A DNA stretch of 14,509 nt from the IMG/VR virus record IMGVR_UViG_2534681702_000004, positions 1 through 14,509 of that record. The stretch is one strand, 5' to 3'. This stretch comes from a virus. Its lineage: Duplodnaviria > Heunggongvirae > Uroviricota > Caudoviricetes. Both the position numbers and the translations under genes were made by a program. The notes under the pieces were generated by a model. The model did not search any database. It was not told where the DNA came from and saw only the letters and a program-made list of their open reading frames with translations. The number at the start of each line of letters is the position of its first letter. The first letter of the stretch is position 1. Shown here piece after piece: positions 1 to 14,509 of the stretch.

Positions 1-366
1 ATGATTGATGTCTTAGGGCCGGAGAAACGCAGACGGCGTACCACACAGGAAAAGATCGCAATTGTTCAGCAGAGCTTTGAACCGGGGATGACGGTCTCCC
101 TCGTTGCCCGGCAACATGGTGTAGCAGCCAGCCAGTTATTTCTCTGGTGTAAGCAATACCAGGAAGGAAGTCTTACTGCTGTCGCCGCCGGAGAACAGGT
201 TGTTCCTGCCTCTGAACTTGCTGCCGCCATGAAGCAGATTAAAGAACTCCAGCGCCTGCTCGGCAAGAAAACGATGGAAAATGAACTCCTCAAAGAAGCC
301 GTTGAATATGGACGGGCAAAAAAGTGGATAGCGCACGCGCCCTTATTGCCCGGGGATGGGGAGTAA
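1..366 (+). CDS. insC: IS2 transposase OrfA (InsC), HTH DNA-binding protein
   Basis: 121 aa [29 protein letters not shown]... matches IS2 InsC from recall. ATG at 1-3. Confidence 0.95.
318..324 (+). promoter_or_regulatory. A6G slippery heptamer for programmed -1 ribosomal frameshift, producing the InsCD fusion transposase
   Basis: AAAAAAG lies in the insC/insD overlap. insD is in the -1 frame relative to insC, the standard IS3-family arrangement. Confidence 0.8.
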
Positions 367-1229
367 GCTTAGTCAGCCGTTGTCTCCGGGTGTCGCGTGC
401 GCAGTTGCACGTCATTCTCAGACGAACCGATGACTGGATGGATGGCCGCCGCAGTCGTCACACTGATGATACGGATGTGCTTCTCCGTATACACCATGTT
501 ATCGGAGAGCTGCCCACGTATGGTTATCGTCGGGTATGGGCGCTGCTTCGCAGACAGGCAGAACTTGATGGTATGCCTGCGATCAATGCCAAACGTGTTT
601 ACCGGATCATGCGCCAGAATGCGCTGTTGCTTGAGCGAAAACCTGCTGTACCGCCATCGAAACGGGCACATACAGGCAGAGTGGCCGTGAAAGAAAGCAA
701 TCAGCGATGGTGCTCTGACGGGTTCGAGTTCTGCTGTGATAACGGAGAGAGACTGCGTGTCACGTTCGCGCTGGACTGCTGTGATCGTGAGGCACTGCAC
801 TGGGCGGTCACTACCGGCGGCTTCAACAGTGAAACAGTACAGGACGTCATGCTGGGAGCGGTGGAACGCCGCTTCGGCAACGATCTTCCGTCGTCTCCAG
901 TGGAGTGGCTGACGGATAATGGTTCATGCTACCGGGCTAATGAAACACGCCAGTTCGCCCGGATGTTGGGACTTGAACCGAAGAACACGGCGGTGCGGAG
1001 TCCGGAGAGTAATGGAATAGCAGAGAGCTTCGTGAAAACGATAAAGCGTGACTACATCAGTATCATGCCCAAACCAGACGGGTTAACGGCAGCAAAGAAC
1101 CTTGCAGAGGCGTTCGAGCATTATAACGAATGGCATCCGCATAGTGCGCTGGGTTATCGCTCGCCACGGGAATATCTGCGGCAGCGGGCTTGTAATGGGT
1201 TAAGTGATAACAGATGTCTGGAAATATAG
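324..1229 (+). CDS. insD: IS2 transposase OrfB (InsD), DDE catalytic domain
   Basis: 301 aa ORF matches IS2 InsD from recall. It overlaps insC in the -1 frame. Confidence 0.95.
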
Positions 1230-1577
1230 GGGCAAATCCAGCAGCAATAATAAGACGGCGTTTCAACAGCAAACCCTCAGGTGTTTCAAATAGCTGTTCT
1301 TTTTACGGAAATACTTATGAACTGGCTGGAATAAAGTGCAAGAAAATGTGACTACTATCTCATTTTTATCTGACATGATCTGTTGTCACTCGCTGCCAAA
1401 TTGTCGCGCTAAAGCTGATTAGCACGGTGATATTTGATACTCTGGCAGACAGCAGAAATAACGGATTTAACCTAATGATGAATGACGGTAAGCAACAATC
1501 TACCTTTTTGTTTCACGATTACGCGCAACACCACTGAGAACCGCCATGAACAAGGGCTTCATGATTTGTGATTTTAG

Positions 1578-1601
1578 TTTGGTACGCAATTTGGTACACA
1601 A
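1578..1601. repeat. Tandem direct repeat TTTGGTACGCAA / TTTGGTACACAA (2 x 12 bp, 11 of 12 identical)
   Basis: Read directly from the sequence in the non-coding stretch between IS2 and the tailspike gene. Confidence 0.6.
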
Positions 1602-1939
1602 CACAATTTTTACTTCAGCGGGTAGTCATCAAACTCACCATAACGAGCATCGTTAATGATGTATGTGATCACCACAAACATCACATCTGGACTAGTTCCG
1701 TTTTCATGCGCAGGTATTTGTTCACGCCTCCCTTTCTGCAACCCCTAAAGATGAGATTTTGGGGTTTTGGGATATCTTTTATCCGCAGTTCTCTATCCAT
1801 TATGCAAACCAGTAATGAACCATCACCGTGTGATAGTGAGGCATCTATCTGCCACGATAAGCGCAGAGAAATGATGCAATGGTGGGCGGACTGGATTGAT
1901 GAAAAGGTGGAGTGATCCGCCTTAACCACTATCGAAGAG

Positions 1940-1973
1940 CACAAAGCCTTGCAATCCAGTGCAAAGCTTTGTG
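1940..1973 (-). other. Strong stem-loop (14 bp stem, 6 nt loop) about 57 nt downstream of the tailspike stop; possible 3' stabiliser or terminator
   Basis: CACAAAGCCTTGCA ATCCAG TGCAAAGCTTTGTG; the single plus-strand mismatch becomes a G.U pair in the minus-strand RNA. No clean U-tract follows, so terminator function is uncertain. Confidence 0.4.
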
Positions 1974-2029
1974 TGATATTTGCTGGTTATCTGTTTTTTA
2001 TATAGAAATGATTATACCCATTGATATTA

Positions 2030-4531
2030 CTATCTTTGGTATAACGATTCTTCAAGCTTTCTAATTCTTTCGAAAAGACCTCTCATTATAAATCTATCAA
2101 GCTCCTGATCTCTAAACTGCCAAAGATCACCAGCCGCTCTAATCAACTTCATCTCTCCATTCTTAACTAAGTTTCCAAATTCATCAATTTCAGTAACATA
2201 TTCAAATTCATCATCCCAAGCATCATAACCAATAAATCCGTATTTTTTCCAATCAAGATTATTCTCCTCAAGTATTGCAATAACTTTCTGAACAGTCGTT
2301 CCAGCATGCAGTCTTTTAGATTCATCATCAATCCAAGACCAAAAACCTAGAACTTCTGCAATCTTCATTGCGGCATTTATTTCATCAGCGGTCATACCTC
2401 TAACTGCTGTCTTGAGTCTTGCATCAGAACTTGATTGCGTACCTCCGGCAAAATATCCAACATTATATCTGTTGCTCGCGCGCCCCAAATTTTGGGTTGC
2501 ATCACCAGATGGATGCTGAGTTCCATCGGCTTTAAAAACATAACGATCACTTAAATCTGCAGAAGGAGAGCTTTTTAACGAAATGGTAATATCACCAATT
2601 GATGAAGGTGAAATATCACAACCAGAAAGAGTTGTTGCATTCCTCAGCATGAGATTTCTCTGCGGATGTGCATTAACAGGAATCACCTCTCCTTCCGTAT
2701 CTATAATTACCCCGCCACCGTTATCTATATAGTTTGCAGCAACATTTCCTGACACATCTCCGCTACCAGTCATAACTATCATAGAATCTGTGCAGTTAAC
2801 ACCATACCTTCTGTTGTTTTTCGAACTTGCATTATTAGCTGCTACTGTTGCGTTGTAAACAGAATAGATACCATCTATTACATTATCGCTAGATGTTCCA
2901 CCAGTGAAAGCTATGTTTCCACCATATGACGCTGATACTCCATTTCTGGCATTTAGATATGATCTACCGTTTTCGAAATTAACTTTTGATAACGCCCTGG
3001 CCTCAATACCATTTGTTGAGTTACCACACGCAACACCATTTGGCGCGCTTAACTCACTGTTATTAAATGACCAGAACCCATTCAACCCATTTCCTGAGCA
3101 TACAGATCCGTTGGCCTGAATCGCACCACCGATATCAGATATAATCCCATCTTCACCATTACCAGAGCAAACCATGAATTTTCCTCTGATATGAGCTCCT
3201 TCCGCGTAAATACCGCGCTTTCTATTAGATGATGAAGCTATAAAATTACATACAACACCTGCTCGACCAGAAGCAACAAATCCCTGCTCCCCCCACCCTG
3301 ATATAACAATATCAGGACCAATTGCTAAATTACCAGACATGTCAAATACTTTATTTGATGGATCTGGTTCATCAATTGTTATATCAGGCGTGGCAATAGT
3401 GAACCCATGCGCTCCAATTGTGCCTATAGATTCTGCTACCGAGTAATCACCAACAATGGCTACACCATCAATTGTATTAATACAATCACCACCTGACACG
3501 GCAAAACCATCACAACCAGTATATTTGAGAACCGACTTAATTATAGATACCGATCCTCCAGTTAATGTCGATTCAGGGAAGTTATCAAGATGGCAAGTAT
3601 TATTTACTGTAACATTTGCTCCAGAAACTGACAGTACTTTCCATCCTCCACAGTGCATGTGATATGCACCGGTTCCTGAAACGTCATGTCTAATTATGAT
3701 ATAATCACCAACAGAAACATTTGAAGCATCAGAAAGCGATATCGTTACAGAATAATTTTTCTTCGAACCAGCAACTGATACAAGTGATGTTATTGATGTT
3801 TCATATTTGACACCCTTAATTGTCAAATTATGGGCGCCTATACAACTAACAATGGTCTTTTCTGTAAAATATGAATAGCCAGGGGGAATATTAACTGTAA
3901 GCCGCCCCCTTAACTCACATCTTGAAAACAACTTAAATAATCCAGAAACATCTTTTATTGACGGGTTTGCAACAAACTCACCAGGAGGAATAATTATAGT
4001 TCCTACGTTTGAACTTAAGGCATTTATAATTGCATTTGTTATGCTGCTGTCATTTACAATGTAATCAGCTATGCTGATTGACTCAATCATTTTATCATGA
4101 ACAGTTCTTCTGTCTGACGACATGCCTGGTTGCTTTACGTTAACAAGGTTATCTCCAAGTCCATCCAATGGGCTTAAAAGTTGTGCACGTAGTTGATCTG
4201 GATCATACTTCAGCACATTAGGAAAATAGAACTGCTGCGCACCATACGCATCATAAACAGCCATAGAATGGCCTTGCACGGTAACGAATTTGGCAATCTG
4301 TCCGTTATATACTGGATACCCTGCGGCATTGATGACGATTGGCTGTGCAACAGGAACGTGAGAGCCGTCTTCGTTCTCCACATAGACCTGAATCTGGTTT
4401 TCAGGATTTACCGGGTCAGTGTCAATTTTACCGATATAAATTTTGCCATTGGCTACGGCTTTAAAAGAACGCGCCATAGTGAAGAGTTGCGAAGGCATGC
4501 TTACTACAACATTGGCTGTAATGTCTGTCAT
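2030..4531 (-). CDS. Mosaic tailspike: P22 gp9-type N-terminal head-binding domain (about aa 1-111), divergent beta-helix receptor-binding/depolymerase body, and C-terminal intramolecular-chaperone-like domain (about 2033-2428)
   Basis: The N-terminus [11 protein letters not shown]...[22 protein letters not shown]...ENEDGSH...[12 protein letters not shown]...VLKYDPDQ matches the P22 tailspike head-binding domain from recall; similarity stops after YDPDQ. The middle is Gly/Asn/Ser-rich with repeats typical of a parallel beta-helix. The C-terminus has SSSDARLK, resembling the serine autocleavage motif of endosialidase/K5-lyase-type chaperone domains. GGAG RBS 8 nt upstream of the ATG. Confidence 0.85.
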
Positions 4532-4589
4532 TTAATTTGCTCCAGATACAAGGAATCGCCGCAGCGTAGCTACGGTGAATTTTGGGCAT

Positions 4590-4612
4590 AAAAAAACCCA
4601 GCCGAAGCTGGG
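4590..4612 (-). terminator. Rho-independent terminator downstream of ant
   Basis: Minus-strand transcript reads CCCAGC-TTCG-GCTGGG followed by seven T; it sits between the ant stop and the tailspike start. Confidence 0.8.
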
Positions 4613-4631
4613 TCGTTGCGTTGGTTATCTG

Positions 4632-5534
4632 TCAGTAGTTATGTACTGAAGGAGGCAATTCTTTATTCTTAAGTCTCATCCATGCGGAAAGATTCGTTGG
4701 TCCGTCTGGCTCATTAATATCAACATCTCGTGTGTGGTTTATTAAAACGTCTCTCGCCATTCCGATAACATACGAGAATTCATGACCGTAGTCGTAGCAT
4801 CTGCCGGAATAGTTCGATTGAATTTGTTTTAGCGCCAGATACAGTTCGCGGAATAATGCCTGTGAGCGGTTGGCATAATCCCATAACCATACAAGGCTGT
4901 TTGCTTCTTTTGCAGAAAGCTCGTTGGTTTTCTTCTCTTGTTTGCCGATAAATTCACCTTCAAGCACTACCCTGTGGATGTACTCTACGGCTTGCGGTAT
5001 CTGAGATGCATCAAGCTCTTCAATACTTTCCACATTGAAACGCTGATGAATCATTGCATAAGCTTCTGGGTACATTAGATGCTTTTTGCTGACTAGCATA
5101 TTTACAGCATCACGAAGCGGAGTCCTGTCATCAACAGATGTTTTCTTACGTGCATTTTCTGCCTTTCCCTTTGTCCAGTAGTCATGCAGTACAGTAAAGC
5201 ATTCTTCCTGGTACTGAATCAGTTTATCACGGATGTCAGCACGAACTTTCTCAGGGTTGATGCTGAACAGCCATCCATTTAACTTCTTCAAAGGAAGGCA
5301 GAGTAGCTTACGAAGCTTCCCATCAGCGGCAACCATGTTCATATGAACACAGTTGAATTTGCTAATCTGCTTCATGAGTTTTGTTTGCTGCGTTGACCAG
5401 CTCATTCCAAGGTTTTCAACGATTGGCTTCATCGCAACATATGCAACTCCGGCAGCCATGGCGGTGATAATTTGCTGACCGTTGAATGGTACATAAGAGG
5501 TGTTCACTGCTTCTAAAATTGCTATACTATTCAT
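4632..5534 (-). CDS. ant: Antirepressor Ant (P22 immI), 300 aa
   Basis: [43 protein letters not shown]... matches P22 Ant from recall. ATG at 5534 has a GGAGAAAA RBS. The longer ORF in the track starts at a TTG at 5600 and is rejected. Confidence 0.85.
5501..5528 (+). promoter_or_regulatory. Candidate Psar promoter with extended -10 (TGcTATACT at 5520-5528) inside the 5' end of ant, reading antisense
   Basis: The -10 hexamer TATACT has an upstream TG. The weak -35-like TGTTCA sits at the right spacing. This places the start about 5536, just past the ant start codon. Confidence 0.5.
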
Positions 5535-5535
5535 G

Positions 5536-5604
5536 TTGGTTTTTCTCCACGGATTTACTGACAACCGAAGCCCTGACTGTTCCCGCAGTTGGGGCTTCAA
5601 CTTT
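5536..5604 (+). ncRNA. sar: sar-like antisense RNA (about 69 nt) covering the arc-ant intercistronic region and ant RBS
   Basis: P22 encodes a 68-69 nt antisense RNA in the arc-ant spacer. Here the spacer is 68 bp. A hairpin at 5567-5598 is followed by CUUU. Exact ends are inferred. Confidence 0.55.
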
Positions 5605-5764
5605 ACGCGCCAATGCGCCCTTCCTTCTTAAAGCTTTCCATTACTCTCTGATAAATCTCAGAGTTAACAGACCGACCATTCTCTTCCGCCACCTTGCGGA
5701 CCAAATCCAATACTTCTTTAGGCCACCGCAAATTGAACTGCGGCATCTTGCTCATTCCTTTCAT
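5603..5764 (-). CDS. arc: Arc repressor (ribbon-helix-helix), 53 aa
   Basis: [53 protein letters not shown] matches P22 Arc from recall with one substitution (R16K). The track ORF extends upstream into the operator and is trimmed to the ATG at 5764. Confidence 0.92.
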
Positions 5765-5780
5765 ATTCACCTCACAATAT

Positions 5781-5797
5781 AGGTCCACCGTGGACCT
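5781..5797. promoter_or_regulatory. Mnt operator (O_mnt), 17 bp palindrome
   Basis: AGGTCCACCGTGGACCT; its reverse complement AGGTCCACGGTGGACCT is the canonical P22 Mnt operator as recalled. Confidence 0.85.
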
Positions 5798-5806
5798 ATT
5801 GAGAAT

Positions 5807-5827
5807 ATAGTAGAGTGCTTCTATCAT
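5807..5827. promoter_or_regulatory. Arc operator (O_arc), 21 bp, overlapping Pant
   Basis: The reverse complement of 5807-5827 is ATGATAGAAGCACTCTACTAT, the canonical P22 Arc operator as recalled. Confidence 0.85.
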
Positions 5828-5854
5828 GTCAATACACTAACTTGGAGTGATGGC

Positions 5855-6106
5855 ATGGCTAGAGATGATCCGCACTTTAACTTCCGTATGCCTATGGAAG
5901 TAAGGGAGAAATTAAAATTCAGGGCGGAGGCGAATGGGAGATCAATGAACTCCGAGTTGTTACAAATCGTCCAAGATGCTCTATCAAAACCATCGCCTGT
6001 GACTGGATATCGCGACGATGCAGAACGACTCGCTGATGAGCAGTCAGAGCTTGTTAAGAAGATGGTATTTGATACGCTGAAGGATTTGTACAAAAAACCC
6101 ACCTGA
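5855..6106 (+). CDS. mnt: Mnt repressor (maintenance of lysogeny; represses Pant), 83 aa
   Basis: MARDDPHFNFRMPMEVREKLKFRAEANGRSMNSELLQIVQDALSKPSPVTGYRDDAERLADEQSELVKKMVFDTLKDLYKKPT matches P22 Mnt from recall. GGAG RBS 7 nt upstream. Confidence 0.92.
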   Translation: MARDDPHFNFRMPMEVREKLKFRAEANGRSMNSELLQIVQDALSKPSPVTGYRDDAERLADEQSELVKKMVFDTLKDLYKKPT

Positions 6107-6124
6107 AGGTGGGTCCTATTTATT
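6092..6124. terminator. Bidirectional rho-independent terminator between convergent mnt and the lipoprotein gene
   Basis: A6 - CCCACC TGAA GGTGGG - TCCTATTTATT. The mnt stop codon TGA lies in the loop. The minus strand has a U6 tract directly after the stem. Confidence 0.75.
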
Positions 6125-6542
6125 AGTCTTGCTTTGTTGATGGTATAAGAGATGCGTTTGCCTCTTTTGGCTTCAAGGTATACATCCCACCATTAAAAGG
6201 ATCTACAGCAAGCCAACCAATTAACCCACCAAACACAAGGTTTCCACCAATATACCAGCCATTAGCATTGGCTTTGATTGGCAGGGTAACTGGTTCGTAC
6301 CCATCCTTTTCCATAGTGATCTGGTAGCTCTTTTTGCCAAAATAACTACCATCTGACTTGGCAAGAGTTACTCCTTGCGGGGTCTTACCTTGCGCAACAA
6401 TCACGCCTGATTCGTCTTTTACCTTAAAGCTCGCACCGGAAGGATTGCTGTTCACTTGCACAAGCTGCGTTTCGTCACCAACAATAGTTGCGCACCCAGA
6501 TAACAATATAGCGCCAGCAACGACGCCAATAATCCTCTTCAT
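6123..6542 (-). CDS. Hypothetical prophage lipoprotein (lipobox LSGC), cargo gene in the sieA position
   Basis: MKRIIGVVAGAILLSGC is a typical signal peptidase II signal. The ORF is followed by a terminator. An alternative start (MEIDMKR...) lies 12 nt upstream at 6554. Function is unknown. Confidence 0.7.
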   Translation of the reverse strand: MKRIIGVVAGAILLSGCATIVGDETQLVQVNSNPSGASFKVKDESGVIVAQGKTPQGVTLAKSDGSYFGKKSYQITMEKDGYEPVTLPIKANANGWYIGGNLVFGGLIGWLAVDPFNGGMYTLKPKEANASLIPSTKQD

Positions 6543-6659
6543 ATCAATTTCCATATTTAAAAAACCGGAAACATCCTAATGACAAACCATTCAAATGTGA
6601 AGTAGGCAAAAGATGTTTACTTTTTTCATGGTATCCTGCTCAAAACTAAGGAGGTTGGC

Positions 6660-7049
6660 GTGAAGCAATTTCTTACTGCTATGTTCTTATTCATATCTTT
6701 TGGGGCTACAGCAGAGTGCTGGGTCGTTGGAGATATGCGCGGAATAAGCTATTCAGAACGAAATAATTTCCATCCGGAAGAAGATGGTTTTAGTGGAACA
6801 TTCATCATTAAGACAAACGGTGAAGATGCCAGCATCACATATTCTGGGACAGATGCGGGCGGCATGGCTTACAAAGCATTGTCTAAAAACTCCATCATAG
6901 GAATCGGCGCGAATGGCGAAACTCAACGCGTTATCGACTCATGGGTAATACATCCTACTGGAACAGTTTTAATGTCAAAAACCATTTCCGGTTATGGAAA
7001 TATGGATTCAACCAAAGCTTTTGTTGGAAAAGTAAAAAGAAAATGTTAG
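6660..7049 (+). CDS. Hypothetical secreted protein (Sec signal peptide with ATA/E cleavage site), cargo gene
   Basis: GTG start with a strong TAAGGAGG RBS at 6647-6654. The N-terminus MKQFLTAMFLFISFGATA is hydrophobic. The mature protein has an N-proximal Cys and a C-terminal Cys. Confidence 0.62.
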   Translation: MKQFLTAMFLFISFGATAECWVVGDMRGISYSERNNFHPEEDGFSGTFIIKTNGEDASITYSGTDAGGMAYKALSKNSIIGIGANGETQRVIDSWVIHPTGTVLMSKTISGYGNMDSTKAFVGKVKRKC

Positions 7050-7073
7050 CGATTGAATCCAATTTCCCATACG

Positions 7074-8912
7074 TTACTGCTGTGTTGCCTCAGTAGCAAA
7101 CAGCGGTCTGATGGCATTCGCAGCGTTATTTATCGCTCTTTCATAGGCTGGTGTTCCTGCTTTGGTGTTTGCCAAACGAAGAAGCATATTCCTTGCTGCT
7201 TTGGACTCATACAAGCGCATCATTGCACCAAAACCAGCCTCAAGCCCCATTGATACGCCAAGGGTCGCAGTTGCGCCAATCGTCCTTATCCTGTTGGCTT
7301 GCGATTGCCCCGTCTGAGTTACTACATTTGCGGTGTCTGACCTTGCTGTTTGCTGTAGAACTTCATGAAGAGCATCAAGCTCTTTCATGTGCTTTCCAGA
7401 AAAAATAGTGTTGTAAATTTCACCGCCTGACTGAGATTTCAGCTTATTAACTTCAGTGATGAACTTGGCTGGAGAGTCCCCGGTCTTTTCCGCTATTTTG
7501 CTGACGTAAGCTGCACGCATAGCATCTTTCCCCTTATCATCCAGTGCGCTCCAGATTCGTTTCACGTCAGATGGTTTTCTGCTTAATACAACGGTATTTA
7601 TAAGTTCAGGACTGGCTTCACTGCTTGCCTTGTTGAGCTTGTTGGCAATGTTTTTATTAAGCACCTTATTATAAACGTTTGCATAATCGGAATTTGCTTT
7701 AAGGTATTTTGCTGCGTCTGATGCACCGAGGTTTTTAGCAACTGCGTTACGAAGGTCTTTTGACATTGCATTCTCTACCATATTGGTAGCTGCTTTTGCC
7801 TGGTTGGGGAAGACCATAGCATCTCCCTGAACATTAGATCTAAATGCTGTTCTGTGCTGACGCAAGAGATCAAACGTAACATCCAAATCAGTTGCAGGGT
7901 TTGCTAATTCTTCACGTAGGTTACGCAAGGATGTAAGCAGGCTTTGATTGGCAGACGTCCCAAGCCGTTCCTGTCTTGCGATCGCTGTATTCAGAGCATT
8001 CATGGTATTTGTGGTATCAACTGCGGCATTACCCATTTTATTGGTGACGTCATTGATAACAGCGCCAGCGGCATCCTTCCGCCCCCTTAACGTGGTGGTC
8101 AGAGATTTCACCACATCATCAGGGTTGTACTCACCAAAACGGTCAAAATAATTGCTTACCAGCTTACTCCGCGTTGCATATTGCTCTGCTCGCTTTGAGC
8201 CCGTCCCGAGCAAAGCCCCCTCGGCATCCTGAGTAAGGCCGCGAGTGAAAGCATTTTTCGGCGGGATAACATCAGATGTCATTGGTGTCACGCCCATCGA
8301 TTCTGATGTGGCAATTTTCTTCGCCACTTCTGGCGCAATATCACCTTTTATAGCCGTTATTCCACGCCCTATTCCCTTTGCTGCTGCGGAAAGAACACCC
8401 TGAGCGGCAAGGTTAACTCCGGCATTTTTAGCTGCATTTTGTGCGAAATCGCCTTTCTGATTTGCGGCCTCTGCCAGCGATCCAATAGCCATGCTTCCTG
8501 CCGTTCCAACTCCTGGAACTAAATACCCACCAATTGTTTCACCGGCTTGTGCGTATGGGTCTGTCGGTTTGTCTACTGGACGATAAACATCATCCAAAAC
8601 TTTTGGCCCACCAAGCCCCTGACTGATTGCATTAATCAGACTTGCGCCACCCTGCAATACGTCAAATGGTATGTTTACCAGACCACGACCAGCCTGTTCT
8701 GCAATTTGCCCTGCACTTTGACCACCAGTGAGCCAATCGCCAGCTTGTTGCATCAATGATGGTTCTTCACGTACTGGTGCATTATTGGCCTGATTAACTG
8801 TTTGTTGCTGAACAACCTGACCAGCAAAATAATCATCAATGGCGGCTCCAATATCTTCCGTGCTCGTACCATCAGGGAAGGTAAATGTCTTACCGTTTGC
8901 AGTTACTTTCAT
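7074..8912 (-). CDS. DNA-transfer (ejection) protein, P22 gp16-like
   Basis: About 612 aa, starting [32 protein letters not shown], which resembles P22 gp16 from recall. Ala/Gly/Gln-rich composition. The start overlaps the upstream gene stop (TGATG). An alternative ATG lies at 8915. Position matches gene 16 in the P22 order 20-16-sieA-mnt-arc-ant-9. Confidence 0.72.
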
Positions 8913-9740
8913 CATTCCACCGTAAATTGAATGCCTGATTTTGAGGTATATGATCCAACCTGATTCCGTGGTTCTCCTGAAGGTGTCGAATCTTGTGCTG
9001 GCGCTGCGTCAGTATTCAATGACATATACCGCTTAACGGCACTCCCCAATGATTCACCTTTTTTAACATCCAACCCCAATATCTGACCGCCATTACGCGA
9101 TTGTCCAGGATTGCCATTCGCGCTCATCCACTCAGCTTTAAACTCATTAAACTGCGCGTTTCGTCGCTCAAGGTTTGCCATTGCATCAAGCCATCTTGCG
9201 ACCGTCTCAGGGTTATCCATGTCAGTTGGCGCACCCTGCCGAACGATCTCAACGTCTTTATCCGTTGCTGGGCCGGGAGGTAGGAATTTAAGAACCTGAC
9301 TGTTAACAAGGGCATTTTGGCGGATGCGCAAATCACGCAATGTCGTATCGCTTCCGGTAAGTTTTGCGAACATGTTCTGTGCGTTACCGAACAAACCTGT
9401 CGTTGGTTTTTCTGCTCTGAACTGTTGAGCAAGCGCACTCATAGAATTGGCTGAGTTTGATGATGCTGTGGCATTGTTTACAGCCGTCTCGATGCCTTTT
9501 TCCATGTTTACTGACAGCTTAGGTGCTTCACTAATCAACTGCTGAGCCTTTTCCTGCGCTTGCTGCATCTTAAACCCGAACTCTTGCTGATCCAGAGCCA
9601 AGCGTTGTGCTGCGATATTGTGCCCAGTCATTGCTGACTGATAGGAAAGGTTTTGCCCTCTCGCCTGAAGTGCTTCACCAGCCTGATTGCTGCGGATTGT
9701 CTCTGCCAGCCTGCCTCGGTCAATTTCACGACCAGCCATC
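8912..9740 (-). pseudogene. Ejection protein (gp20-like), 3' portion, separated from its 5' portion by IS629
   Basis: The ORF continues in frame with the 11051-11283 fragment once the IS and one ATC copy are removed (352 aa total). The stop overlaps the gp16-like start. Confidence 0.6.
9738..9740. repeat. Target-site duplication ATC (left copy) of the IS629 insertion
   Basis: ATC immediately flanks both IS termini (9738-9740 and 11051-11053). Confidence 0.75.
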
Positions 9741-9782
9741 TGAACCGCCCCGGGTTTCCTGGAGAGTATTTTATCTGTGAAC

Positions 9783-10673
9783 TCAGGCTGCCAGATCATT
9801 ATTTCCGATGGAAGCATAATAAGCTTTTTCTGCTTCTGCCGGAGGAATATGGCCCAGCCTTTCCAGCAATCGTCGATTGTTATACCAGTCCACCCACGTT
9901 AGTGTGGCCAGTTCCACTTCTGTCCGGTTTTTCCAGCTCTTACGGTGTATTACCTCCGCTTTGTAAAGACCATTGATGCTCTCAGCCATCGCGTTGTCAT
10001 ACGAGTCGCCAGTACTCCCTGTTGATGCCAGTAATCCGGCTTCCTTAAGCCGCTGCGTGTAGGCCAGCGATACATACTGAGAACCTTTATCACTGTGATG
10101 GATTGTGCCGGACGGCCGACGGGCCCACAACGCCTGCTCCAGTGCATCCAGCACGAATGTTGTTTCCATGGATGATGAGACCTGCCATCCCACGATGTAT
10201 CCGGCGAACACATCAATGATGAACGCCACATAAACGAAGCCCTGCCATGTGCTTACCCAGGTAAAATCAGCCACCCACAACTGGTCTGGACGTTCTGCCA
10301 CGAACTGACGGTTTACGCGGTCGCATGCGGCAACGGCTTTCCGGCTGACGGTAGTGCGGACCTTTTTCCCCCGGAGAACACCGGCAAGTCCCATAACTGC
10401 CATGAGACGTGCCACAGTGCATCTGGCCACTCTGATACCTTCCCGTAACAACTGACGCCAGACTTTACGCACACCGTATACCTGGTGATTTTCATCGTAT
10501 ACGCGCTGTATCTCTTTCTTCAGCCAGTCATCGTGCTGCGCACGGGCACTGCGTTTATCCGGATGATGTCGCTGTTGCTGACAATGGTAATACGTTGACG
10601 GGGCAATATGCAGTTCGCTACATACCGGTCCGACCCCGTACTGCTCACGCAGCTTATCCAGCAGTGGCATCAT
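9783..10673 (-). CDS. IS629 transposase OrfB (DDE integrase domain)
   Basis: 296 aa ...[50 protein letters not shown]...[10 protein letters not shown]...[15 protein letters not shown]... matches IS629 OrfB from recall. Confidence 0.9.
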
Positions 10674-10996
10674 TTTTTCCAGAGGCGGTCGAACTCCGCC
10701 TTCGCAAAATAAGCGGAAGCCTGGCGAAGGATATCGTTACTGCGGCGCAGTTCACGATTTTCACGTTCCAGCTCTTTCAGACGCTGACGTTCAGCGCTGG
10801 TGAGCCCACCATCACCGCCCCCGGTATCCCGCTCATGCTGGCGAACCCAGACACGCAGAGTCTCCGGCGTACAGCCAATCTTTGGGGCAATGGAACAAAT
10901 TGCCGCCCACTGTGAGTCATATTCATCCTGACTTTCCAGAACCATACGAATCGCCCGCTGACGGACTTCGGGGGAAAAACGAGTATTTTTAGTCAT
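10670..10996 (-). CDS. IS629 transposase OrfA (HTH / leucine zipper)
   Basis: 108 aa [61 protein letters not shown]... matches IS629 OrfA from recall. An A6 run sits at the orfA/orfB overlap. Confidence 0.9.
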
Positions 10997-11050
10997 CCTG
11001 TTTACCTCTTTCTCAGGGAGTTTAGTCTCCAGGATTTCCGGGGCGGTTCA

Positions 11051-11053
11051 ATC
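11051..11053. repeat. Target-site duplication ATC (right copy) of the IS629 insertion
   Basis: See left copy. Confidence 0.75.
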
Positions 11054-11283
11054 TTATCCTGAACAGCAAACGCCTTTTCTGGTCCAAGCGCACCGAGAGA
11101 CATAGTAGTCAGCATGTGTGATAGCTGCTCTGGATTCTGGATACCTGTCTGAATCATCCAGTCAGCATTAGCACCAACGCGATTTAACCTGTCCTTGTTG
11201 TCAGTAATGAATTTACTGTAGGCTTCCGGTCCCTGAGAAAGAGCGACGTTAGCCCTCATGGCTAAATCGCCCATAACCGACAT
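11051..11283 (-). pseudogene. Ejection protein (gp20-like), 5' portion (77 codons), interrupted by IS629
   Basis: ATG at 11283 with an in-frame stop 36 nt upstream and no convincing RBS. The reading frame is continuous with 8912-9737 after IS removal. Confidence 0.55.
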
Positions 11284-11442
11284 CCTGCACAGGTTGAAGC
11301 CGTCAGGATGGCTATAGAGTTACGAAATGAGATGAATAAGGCATTAATGGAGATAGAGAAACCATTCACTGACAAACATTAAGAGTGGAAATAAAGAAAT
11401 CACACAGCCTCACACTCGATGAGGCCTGTACATATCTGATAG

Positions 11443-11467
11443 AGCCGCTATATGGCGGTTTCTTTTT
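11443..11467 (+). terminator. Intrinsic-terminator-like hairpin plus T-tract immediately upstream of the alpA-like RBS
   Basis: AGCCGC-TATATG-GCGGTT followed by TCTTTTT. A second hairpin GCCTCA-CACTCGA-TGAGGC lies at 11407-11425. Confidence 0.5.
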
Positions 11468-11482
11468 GCCTGGAGAATTAAG

Positions 11483-13784
<2,302 letters not shown>

Positions 13785-13789
13785 GTAAC
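13785..13789. repeat. Target-site duplication GTAAC (right copy) of the IS100 insertion
   Basis: See left copy. Confidence 0.8.
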
Positions 13790-14509
13790 AAGCGTTCTTC
13801 TGAAATCATGTGTTCGCCAGTAACCTATATCCATCCCTCCCCTTATTCTATTTACGAATCGGTTGGCTGCAGCGATGCTGATCGGTTTGTTTATGTCTTC
13901 TCCAGGGAAAAGAACATCATTGTACGTTGTCATGGCCTTTTCGAGGAAAGGCTTAATTTGTTCGAAGATTGGACGGCGGATAACATTACCCATCTTGCTA
14001 TGCTCTTTCGGTACGGTCCATACGTTGTCCAGCAGGTCAAACTCTGTCTTTGTTGCCAGCCTAAGCTCTGAGAGCCTCGCCCCCCACAGCATAAGCATCT
14101 GATGAAGTAGCTTATTTGACGTAGACGCACGGCTTCTTTCAATAGCAAGCCAAATCTTAGCCAGTTCGTGATACGACAGTACCCGATCCCCTACCTCAGC
14201 GCGGGAGCCGAAGTCCCTTGGTTGGATGCTCATAATTGCGCAACTATCTATCAACTGACGCCGCATGCACCAACTTATTGCTGATCTTAGTTGACTTAGC
14301 ACCTGCCTTGCTCGGCGTGGATTATCTCTTTCTTCTTCGGTAAGCAGGTCAACCCATTGCTTAACCGTGATAGAAGATGCCGGACGATTAGGAAAGGCGT
14401 CATGCATGCGCTTCATAACCGTTGATCGGTAAAGTGCCTGGGTCTTTTCTCTGAGAGTTGTAGAGACGTAGTTGTCGAACCAGTAGTCGAGACACTGGGC
14501 GACCGTCAT
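13785..14509 (-). pseudogene. P4-type tyrosine integrase, 5' portion (core-binding and part of catalytic domain through HDFRRT), interrupted by IS100; may extend beyond the window
   Basis: ...GYWRTHDFRRTLVT at the junction. The window ends on an ATG (MTVAQ...), but P4-type integrases usually have an extra N-terminal arm-binding domain, so the true start may lie outside. Confidence 0.78.

Follow-up and report, generated by a model that had tools for sequence, protein, structure and literature searches.

A recent IS629-type insertion in an Escherichia coli prophage remnant whose gp20-type ejection gene was very probably already dead

A gp20-type ejection gene in a P22-like prophage of Escherichia coli is split by an insertion sequence (IS), and the question raised by this locus is whether the IS disabled a working prophage or landed in a gene that had already lost its function. 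The DNA analyzed, referred to here as the window, is a stretch of 14,509 nucleotides (IMG/VR record IMGVR_UViG_2534681702_000004, positions 1 to 14,509); it is an assembled sequence, and the correctness of the assembly was assumed. A sequence-only reading of the window had described a complete IS629-type element flanked by a short duplication and had linked the insertion to a prophage that can no longer make infective particles. The analysis supports, with a probability of about 0.93, the recent and strain-specific insertion of an intact IS of the IS629/IS1203 group into a gp20-type gene that was already dead. The interrupted gene is called gp20′ below, and the coordinates of the features are collected in Table 1.

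Table 1. Positions of the IS, the interrupted ejection gene and neighboring prophage features in the window.
Feature	Position	Strand	Basis
Target-site duplication, copy 1, ATC	9738..9740	.	End inspection and empty allele
Target-site duplication, copy 2, ATC	11051..11053	.	End inspection and empty allele
Complete IS3-family IS, IS629/IS1203 isoform group, 1310 bp	9741..11050	-	Ends, identity search, alignment
Left inverted repeat, transposase-proximal, TGAACCGCCCCGGAAATCCTGGAGACTA	11023..11050	-	End comparison
Right inverted repeat, distal, TGAACCGCCCCGGGTTTCCTGGAGAGTA	9741..9768	+	24 of first 28 positions complementary to the other end
orfA, 108 aa, HTH_Tnp_1	10670..10996	-	ORF list, Pfam, alignment
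orfB, 296 aa, HTH_21 and rve (DDE), -1 frame relative to orfA	9783..10673	-	ORF list, Pfam, NCBIfam
ALIL pseudoknot, frameshift stimulator over the GGAAAAAATGA orfA/orfB overlap	10599..10715	-	Rfam RF01497
gp20′ upstream fragment, N7 gp20 codons 123 to about 196	11054..11275	-	ORF list, N7 comparison, BLASTP
gp20′ downstream fragment, N7 gp20 codons about 197-471 and stop	8912..9740	-	ORF list, N7 comparison, BLASTP
gp16-type ejection protein gene, intact, 612-613 aa	7074..8915	-	PGAP: P22-gp16 family phage DNA ejection protein
Older deletion junction, 2-bp TA microhomology	11274..11276	.	Three-way comparison
AlpA-family HTH gene (xis-like), prophage int arm	11483..11674	+	Annotation and phage comparison
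IS100 (IS21 family, 1953 bp) in the prophage integrase gene	11832..13784	-	Annotation, alignment

The IS is complete, as had been proposed. Its termini fit the TG...CA pattern with imperfect inverted repeats over a length of 1310 bp. Both ends start with TGAACCGCCCCGG, and the inverted repeats agree at 13/13 terminal bases and at 24/28 over the first 28. The transposase reads on the minus strand, which is also the direction of gp20′ and gp16. The orfB product matches the NCBIfam model transpos_IS3 at 311.9 bits, and orfA and orfB overlap in the -1 frame at TGGAAAAAATGATG. The OrfAB frame from 10996 to 9783 spans 1214 nt, and the frameshifted coding sequences that PGAP annotates in homologous copies are equally long. 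The ALIL model RF01497 was matched over its full length in Rfam with a score of 119.2 bits versus a gathering score of 50. The intact parts of this copy, the identical copies found elsewhere and the empty-site polymorphism described below suggest that it is competent for transposition.

Copies that match the IS at 100% over all 1310 bp occur in chromosomes and plasmids of other E. coli. These identical copies carry only the PGAP label 'IS3 family transposase', and the plasmid annotations give no isoform name. The group was therefore judged by comparison with the PGAP-labelled IS1203 of O111:H- strain 11128, which aligns without gaps at 96.1% identity (51 substitutions). IS629 subtypes lie 4-5% apart and include IS1203 and IS3411 as isoforms, and the IS629 target duplication is 3-4 bp (PMC3271280, Rump et al.). 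The 96.1% identity to IS1203 falls within the 4-5% IS629 spread, and together with the 3-bp duplication it makes 'IS629-type' what appears to be a fair label at the level of the group (IS629, IS1203 or IS3411). The group is known from E. coli O157:H7, O111 and Shigella, and features shared with it here are a length of 1310 bp, TG...CA termini, orfA/orfB, ALIL and a 3-bp duplication.

Removal of the IS and one ATC joins 11283->11054 to 9740->8912 on the minus strand and gives 1059 nt, equal to 352 codons and a stop. The rejoined junction reads ...GAT AAG ATG GCT..., where the G of the duplicated GAT is the last base of Lys77 and its AT opens Met78. The in-frame rejoining, the codon count and the ATG junction codon of the sequence-only reading were thus all reproduced. 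In the interrupted state, the mechanically called ORF 11283->11002 (minus strand) begins with three junction-derived codons and continues 16 codons into the IS before it stops, and the ORF 9817->8912 (minus strand) begins at an ATG within the IS end and shares the frame of the gp20 C-terminal fragment.

Eight complete E. coli genomes (FORC_031, LR883050, E1433, E1535, E1620, E2386, 254D-1 and 360D-1) match the whole window without the IS, in two pieces that total 13,197 bp. The empty site was aligned base by base in one of the eight, E1433, where it reads GACCAGCC-ATC-TTATCC and contains one ATC. The ATC on each side of the IS is therefore a true 3-bp target duplication, as had been claimed. 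E1433 differs from the window over 13.2 kb by 3 substitutions and one T-run indel. The filled junction (140 bp across 9740/9741) had no true match in 5,426 complete E. coli genomes, and the exact 33-nt filled junction was absent from GTDB representative genome contigs and JGI metagenome contigs. The sole near-full match to the filled junction was in GF66.2, and this is a separate insertion 55 bp off. Matches in O111 EHEC that reach 11050 or 9741 were considered as a shared IS site; inspection refuted this, as the search had joined nearby pieces, and O111:H- 11128 has an intact gp20, with its IS1203 copy next to dacD. Sequence across the IS site is contiguous and uninterrupted in the 471-aa homologues of phage N7 and strain EEC_W5, and it is also uninterrupted in dozens of other prophages. 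Near-identical genomes with an empty site and a single ATC, coupled with the absence of the filled junction elsewhere, identify the insertion as real, derived, strain- or lineage-specific and recent, in agreement with the recent date first suggested. At least three of the IS-free genomes (LR883050, E1433 and E1535) carry a 100% identical IS at another location, so possible donors exist.

The gene that received the IS belongs to the gp20 family, as the sequence-only reading had it. The rejoined protein matches Pfam PF16928 (Inj_translocase) at 182.6 bits versus a cut-off of 29.7, and the match is confined to the C-terminal half of the domain (profile positions 112-217 of 218). Inj_translocase is the "DNA/protein translocase of phage P22 injectosome". 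The best tblastn match was Escherichia phage N7 (MH717096), in which the gene is annotated as gp20 and encodes 471 aa. BLASTP aligned residues 4-352 of the rejoined protein with residues 123-471 of N7 gp20 (347/349 identical, 99%), and the absence of a gap across the IS site places the IS between N7 gp20 codons 196 and 197. NCBIfam returned no matches for gp20′, gp16 or the AlpA-like protein, Pfam returned none for gp16 or the AlpA-like protein, and a sequence search for solved structures of gp20 found none. Full-length genes are present in EEC_W5 (471 aa, uninterrupted, 99.3% DNA identity, preceded by gp7, gp14, gp26 and gp10 homologues), O111:H- 11128 (468 aa) and CUVM3 (471 aa). The 468-471-aa relatives in N7, 11128, CUVM3 and EEC_W5 all have gp7, gp14 and gp26 upstream.

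A full-length gp20 has about 430-471 aa with an N-terminal channel and outer-membrane segment, and residues 1-122 are absent from the rejoined protein. P22 gp20 has 471 aa, and infectivity depends on the ejection proteins (PMC8954989). In situ cryo-EM of P22 gp20 shows that residues 1-47 line the gp7 channel, that the next helix lies in the outer membrane and that residues 68-185 form the PP1 bundle (bioRxiv 10.64898/2026.09.03.749273). These roles would make the missing 122 residues structurally essential and speak against a functional short form. The sequence-only reading had offered a shorter homolog or an already truncated gene; truncation held up, and the shorter homologue was ruled out for the 352-aa ORF by the Pfam coverage, the mapping of the junction and the N7 alignment. 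The window resembles N7 and P22 in that a gp16-type gene directly follows gp20′, with an overlap of stop and start. It differs from both in the loss of residues 1-122, the split by the IS and the lack of an upstream gp7, so that within the gp7-gp20-gp16 synteny gp16 is in place and gp7 is absent through deletion. On this alignment, gp20′ is a 5′-truncated pseudogene, a fragment of a member of the gp20 family.

The truncation coincides with a deletion junction. N7-like gp20 homology runs up to 11275, and matches in many genomes end at the same base. From 11274 onward the sequence is Sf101/IME10-like and corresponds to the intergenic region that follows eag and precedes the AlpA-family gene and integrase. 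In a three-way comparison the two homologies overlapped by 2 bp (TA), which sets the junction at 11274-11275. Here gp20 codon 123 is joined to the eag/alpA/int arm belonging to the same P22-like prophage, and the first three codons of the rejoined ORF, from the ATG at 11283, derive from the junction. No replication, lysis, head, portal, terminase, gp4/10/26/14 or gp7 genes were found between gp20′ and the alpA/int arm, where a complete Lederbergvirus prophage has its replication to tail-accessory genes between int and gp20. The deleted segment starts at the end of the leftward early operon, takes in the replication, lysis, terminase, portal and coat genes together with gp4/10/26/14 and gp7, and ends with gp20 codon 122. 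Some 10 kb of phage DNA is left between dacD and sbcB, and with relatives of ~39 kb as the model the loss would amount to ~29 kb, about three quarters of the phage.

All 8 IS-free genomes match across the deletion junction at 100% identity, and PGAP describes the E1433 gene as "phage DNA ejection protein, incomplete, missing N-terminus". The truncated pseudogene and the deletion junction are thus shared by genomes that do not have the IS, which contradicts the implication that the IS caused the loss of infectivity. The deletion is best read as the product of illegitimate recombination that predates the IS and is independent of it. With deletion and pseudogene both found in genomes that lack the IS, the prophage had already died by the time the IS inserted.

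The rest of the remnant keeps the organization of its relatives. The gene order in E1433 is dacD, IS2, humD′, tailspike, ant, arc, mnt, two small genes, gp16, gp20′, alpA-like, IS100 inside int, and sbcB. Lederbergvirus prophages of O111:H- 11128 and CUVM3 occupy the same dacD-sbcB site and have the same gene order of int, alpA, then gp20, gp16, mnt/arc/ant (with sar RNA) and tailspike, and phages Sf101 and IME10 match the int arm. In contrast to the relatives at dacD-sbcB, about three quarters of this prophage is deleted and three different elements, IS2, IS100 and the IS629-type IS, have been added. Among the near-identical genomes, the IS629-type element is the latest and sole polymorphic IS of the remnant. 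IS100 is flanked by a 5-bp duplication, GTAAC, at 11827-11831 and 13785-13789.

Several further differences and features were observed in the remnant. IS100 in the window differs from E1433 by one substitution at about 13639 and by a 1-nt T-run deletion at about 12779. The deletion reduces the IstA ORF to 317 aa, against 340 aa in E1433, and may reflect a sequencing error in the homopolymer. The window begins inside an IS2 element (1 to about 1239, InsC/InsD ORFs 1-366 and 324-1229) that bounds the remnant on the dacD side and adjoins a humD-family pseudogene fragment (about 1610-1848). The remnant keeps an intact immI module of the P22 type (mnt, arc, ant, sar); the sar RNA (RF00262, 95.6 bits, full-length Rfam match) lies between ant and arc at 5535-5602 on the plus strand. 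The tailspike ORF (2030-4531, minus strand) encodes 833 aa versus 645-715 aa in O111 11128, N7 and EEC_W5, and its N-terminal head-binding part alone matches N7, which is the usual mosaicism of receptor-binding proteins.

Other prophages of this family have been hit by the same IS group. GF66.2 carries an independent 1310-bp IS629-type insertion in its gp20 homologue (L007 4126-5435), 55 bp from the window site, in the same orientation and with its own 3-bp duplication, GAT, in a prophage that appears more complete. IS1203 lies within gp16 of the dacD-sbcB prophages of O111:H8 7-16 37A (L008 5330-6543) and O111:NM 14614 (L009 6008-7221), at different positions and in both cases co-oriented with the late operon. 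These three insertions share the IS group, the 1310-bp length and the late-operon orientation with the window; they differ in their insertion points, and their prophages keep full-length upstream genes. The ejection-gene block therefore contains four independent IS insertions that are all co-oriented with the late operon, a number (n = 4) that is not significant. It is very unlikely that IS629-type elements prefer the gp20/gp16 block by region or orientation, or that a co-oriented IS drives gp16 expression in a domesticated remnant. A different internal deletion was observed in CUVM3, a pig isolate, where the eag region is joined to a 5′-truncated gp26 needle gene (L004 16585-17744). This deletion indicates repeated, independent prophage decay at dacD-sbcB.

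The locus could be explained in other ways. In one of them, the IS knocked out a working gp20, possibly of a naturally shorter form, and so disabled a prophage that was otherwise viable. In its favor, the rejoined frame is open for 352 codons from an ATG start, and gp16, tailspike, ant, arc and mnt are intact ORFs downstream. However, residues 1-122 of every full-length homologue are missing, the C-terminal half of the Pfam domain stands alone, the first three codons derive from the junction and the same pseudogene is found in IS-free genomes. Nor are there head, portal, terminase, lysis, replication or gp7 genes between gp20′ and alpA/int, and this explanation is the least probable of those considered, to the point of being nearly negligible. 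It is also highly unlikely that gp20′ and the remnant are a domesticated, expressed module in which the co-oriented IS alters expression of the gp20′ C-terminal fragment or gp16 by read-through or an outward promoter. Promoter-like sites in 8800-11500 were no commoner than in shuffled sequence, and none faced outward in the IS end. The module would draw on the co-orientation of the IS with gp20′/gp16, the in-frame ATG at 9817 and the gp16 and tailspike ORFs that are still open, but open ORFs are expected by default in a young remnant.

The remaining alternatives concern the insertion event itself. The IS is multicopy in related genomes, and a repeated element can be misplaced by an assembler; a misplaced repeat would not normally duplicate the single ATC of the empty allele exactly while the flanks remain otherwise collinear, and an assembly artefact is rated just as improbable as the domesticated module. 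A little less far-fetched, and still very unlikely, is an ancestral IS-bearing state from which the eight IS-free genomes arose by precise excision, promoted for example by IEE, in which case the insertion would not be recent. Precise, scarless excision of IS629/IS1203v with transposase and IEE is documented (bioRxiv 10.1101/2023.06.07.543989). Against it, the empty site occurs in 8 genomes from several strains and the filled site in 0/5,426, and dozens of other prophages are uninterrupted at the IS site.

With a recent insertion into an already dead gene as the preferred reading, the order of events would be as follows. A P22-like (Lederbergvirus) prophage would have integrated between dacD and sbcB. 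A deletion by illegitimate recombination would then have joined the end of the early operon, by alpA/int, to gp20 codon 123, and IS2 and IS100 would have inserted in the remnant. In the lineage of the source strain, the 1310-bp IS would finally have entered between gp20 codons 196 and 197 with duplication of ATC. The order of deletion before IS rests on parsimony across genomes rather than on a dated phylogeny. From IS3-family biology, the OrfAB transposase would be made by a -1 frameshift at the A-run with the assistance of ALIL, the IS would move by a copy-out/paste-in route through a circular intermediate, and the ATC duplication would result from a staggered cut in the target that is then repaired. 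The insertion most likely had no effect, since the gene it struck was by then a pseudogene and the remnant around it non-inducible; it is most likely neutral and without bearing on particle production.

The locus combines a known element with known behavior and a decaying prophage; this is routine IS biology, and its importance is small beyond annotation and strain typing. For annotation, the 352-codon rejoined ORF is a 5′-truncated pseudogene and not a short gp20 homologue, and the older deletion of about 29 kb, rather than the IS, accounts for the prophage defect. For typing, this E. coli clone could be subtyped by its IS content, with the insertion as a marker specific to the lineage. The locus also illustrates stepwise prophage decay, in which a large deletion was followed by insertions of three different IS elements.
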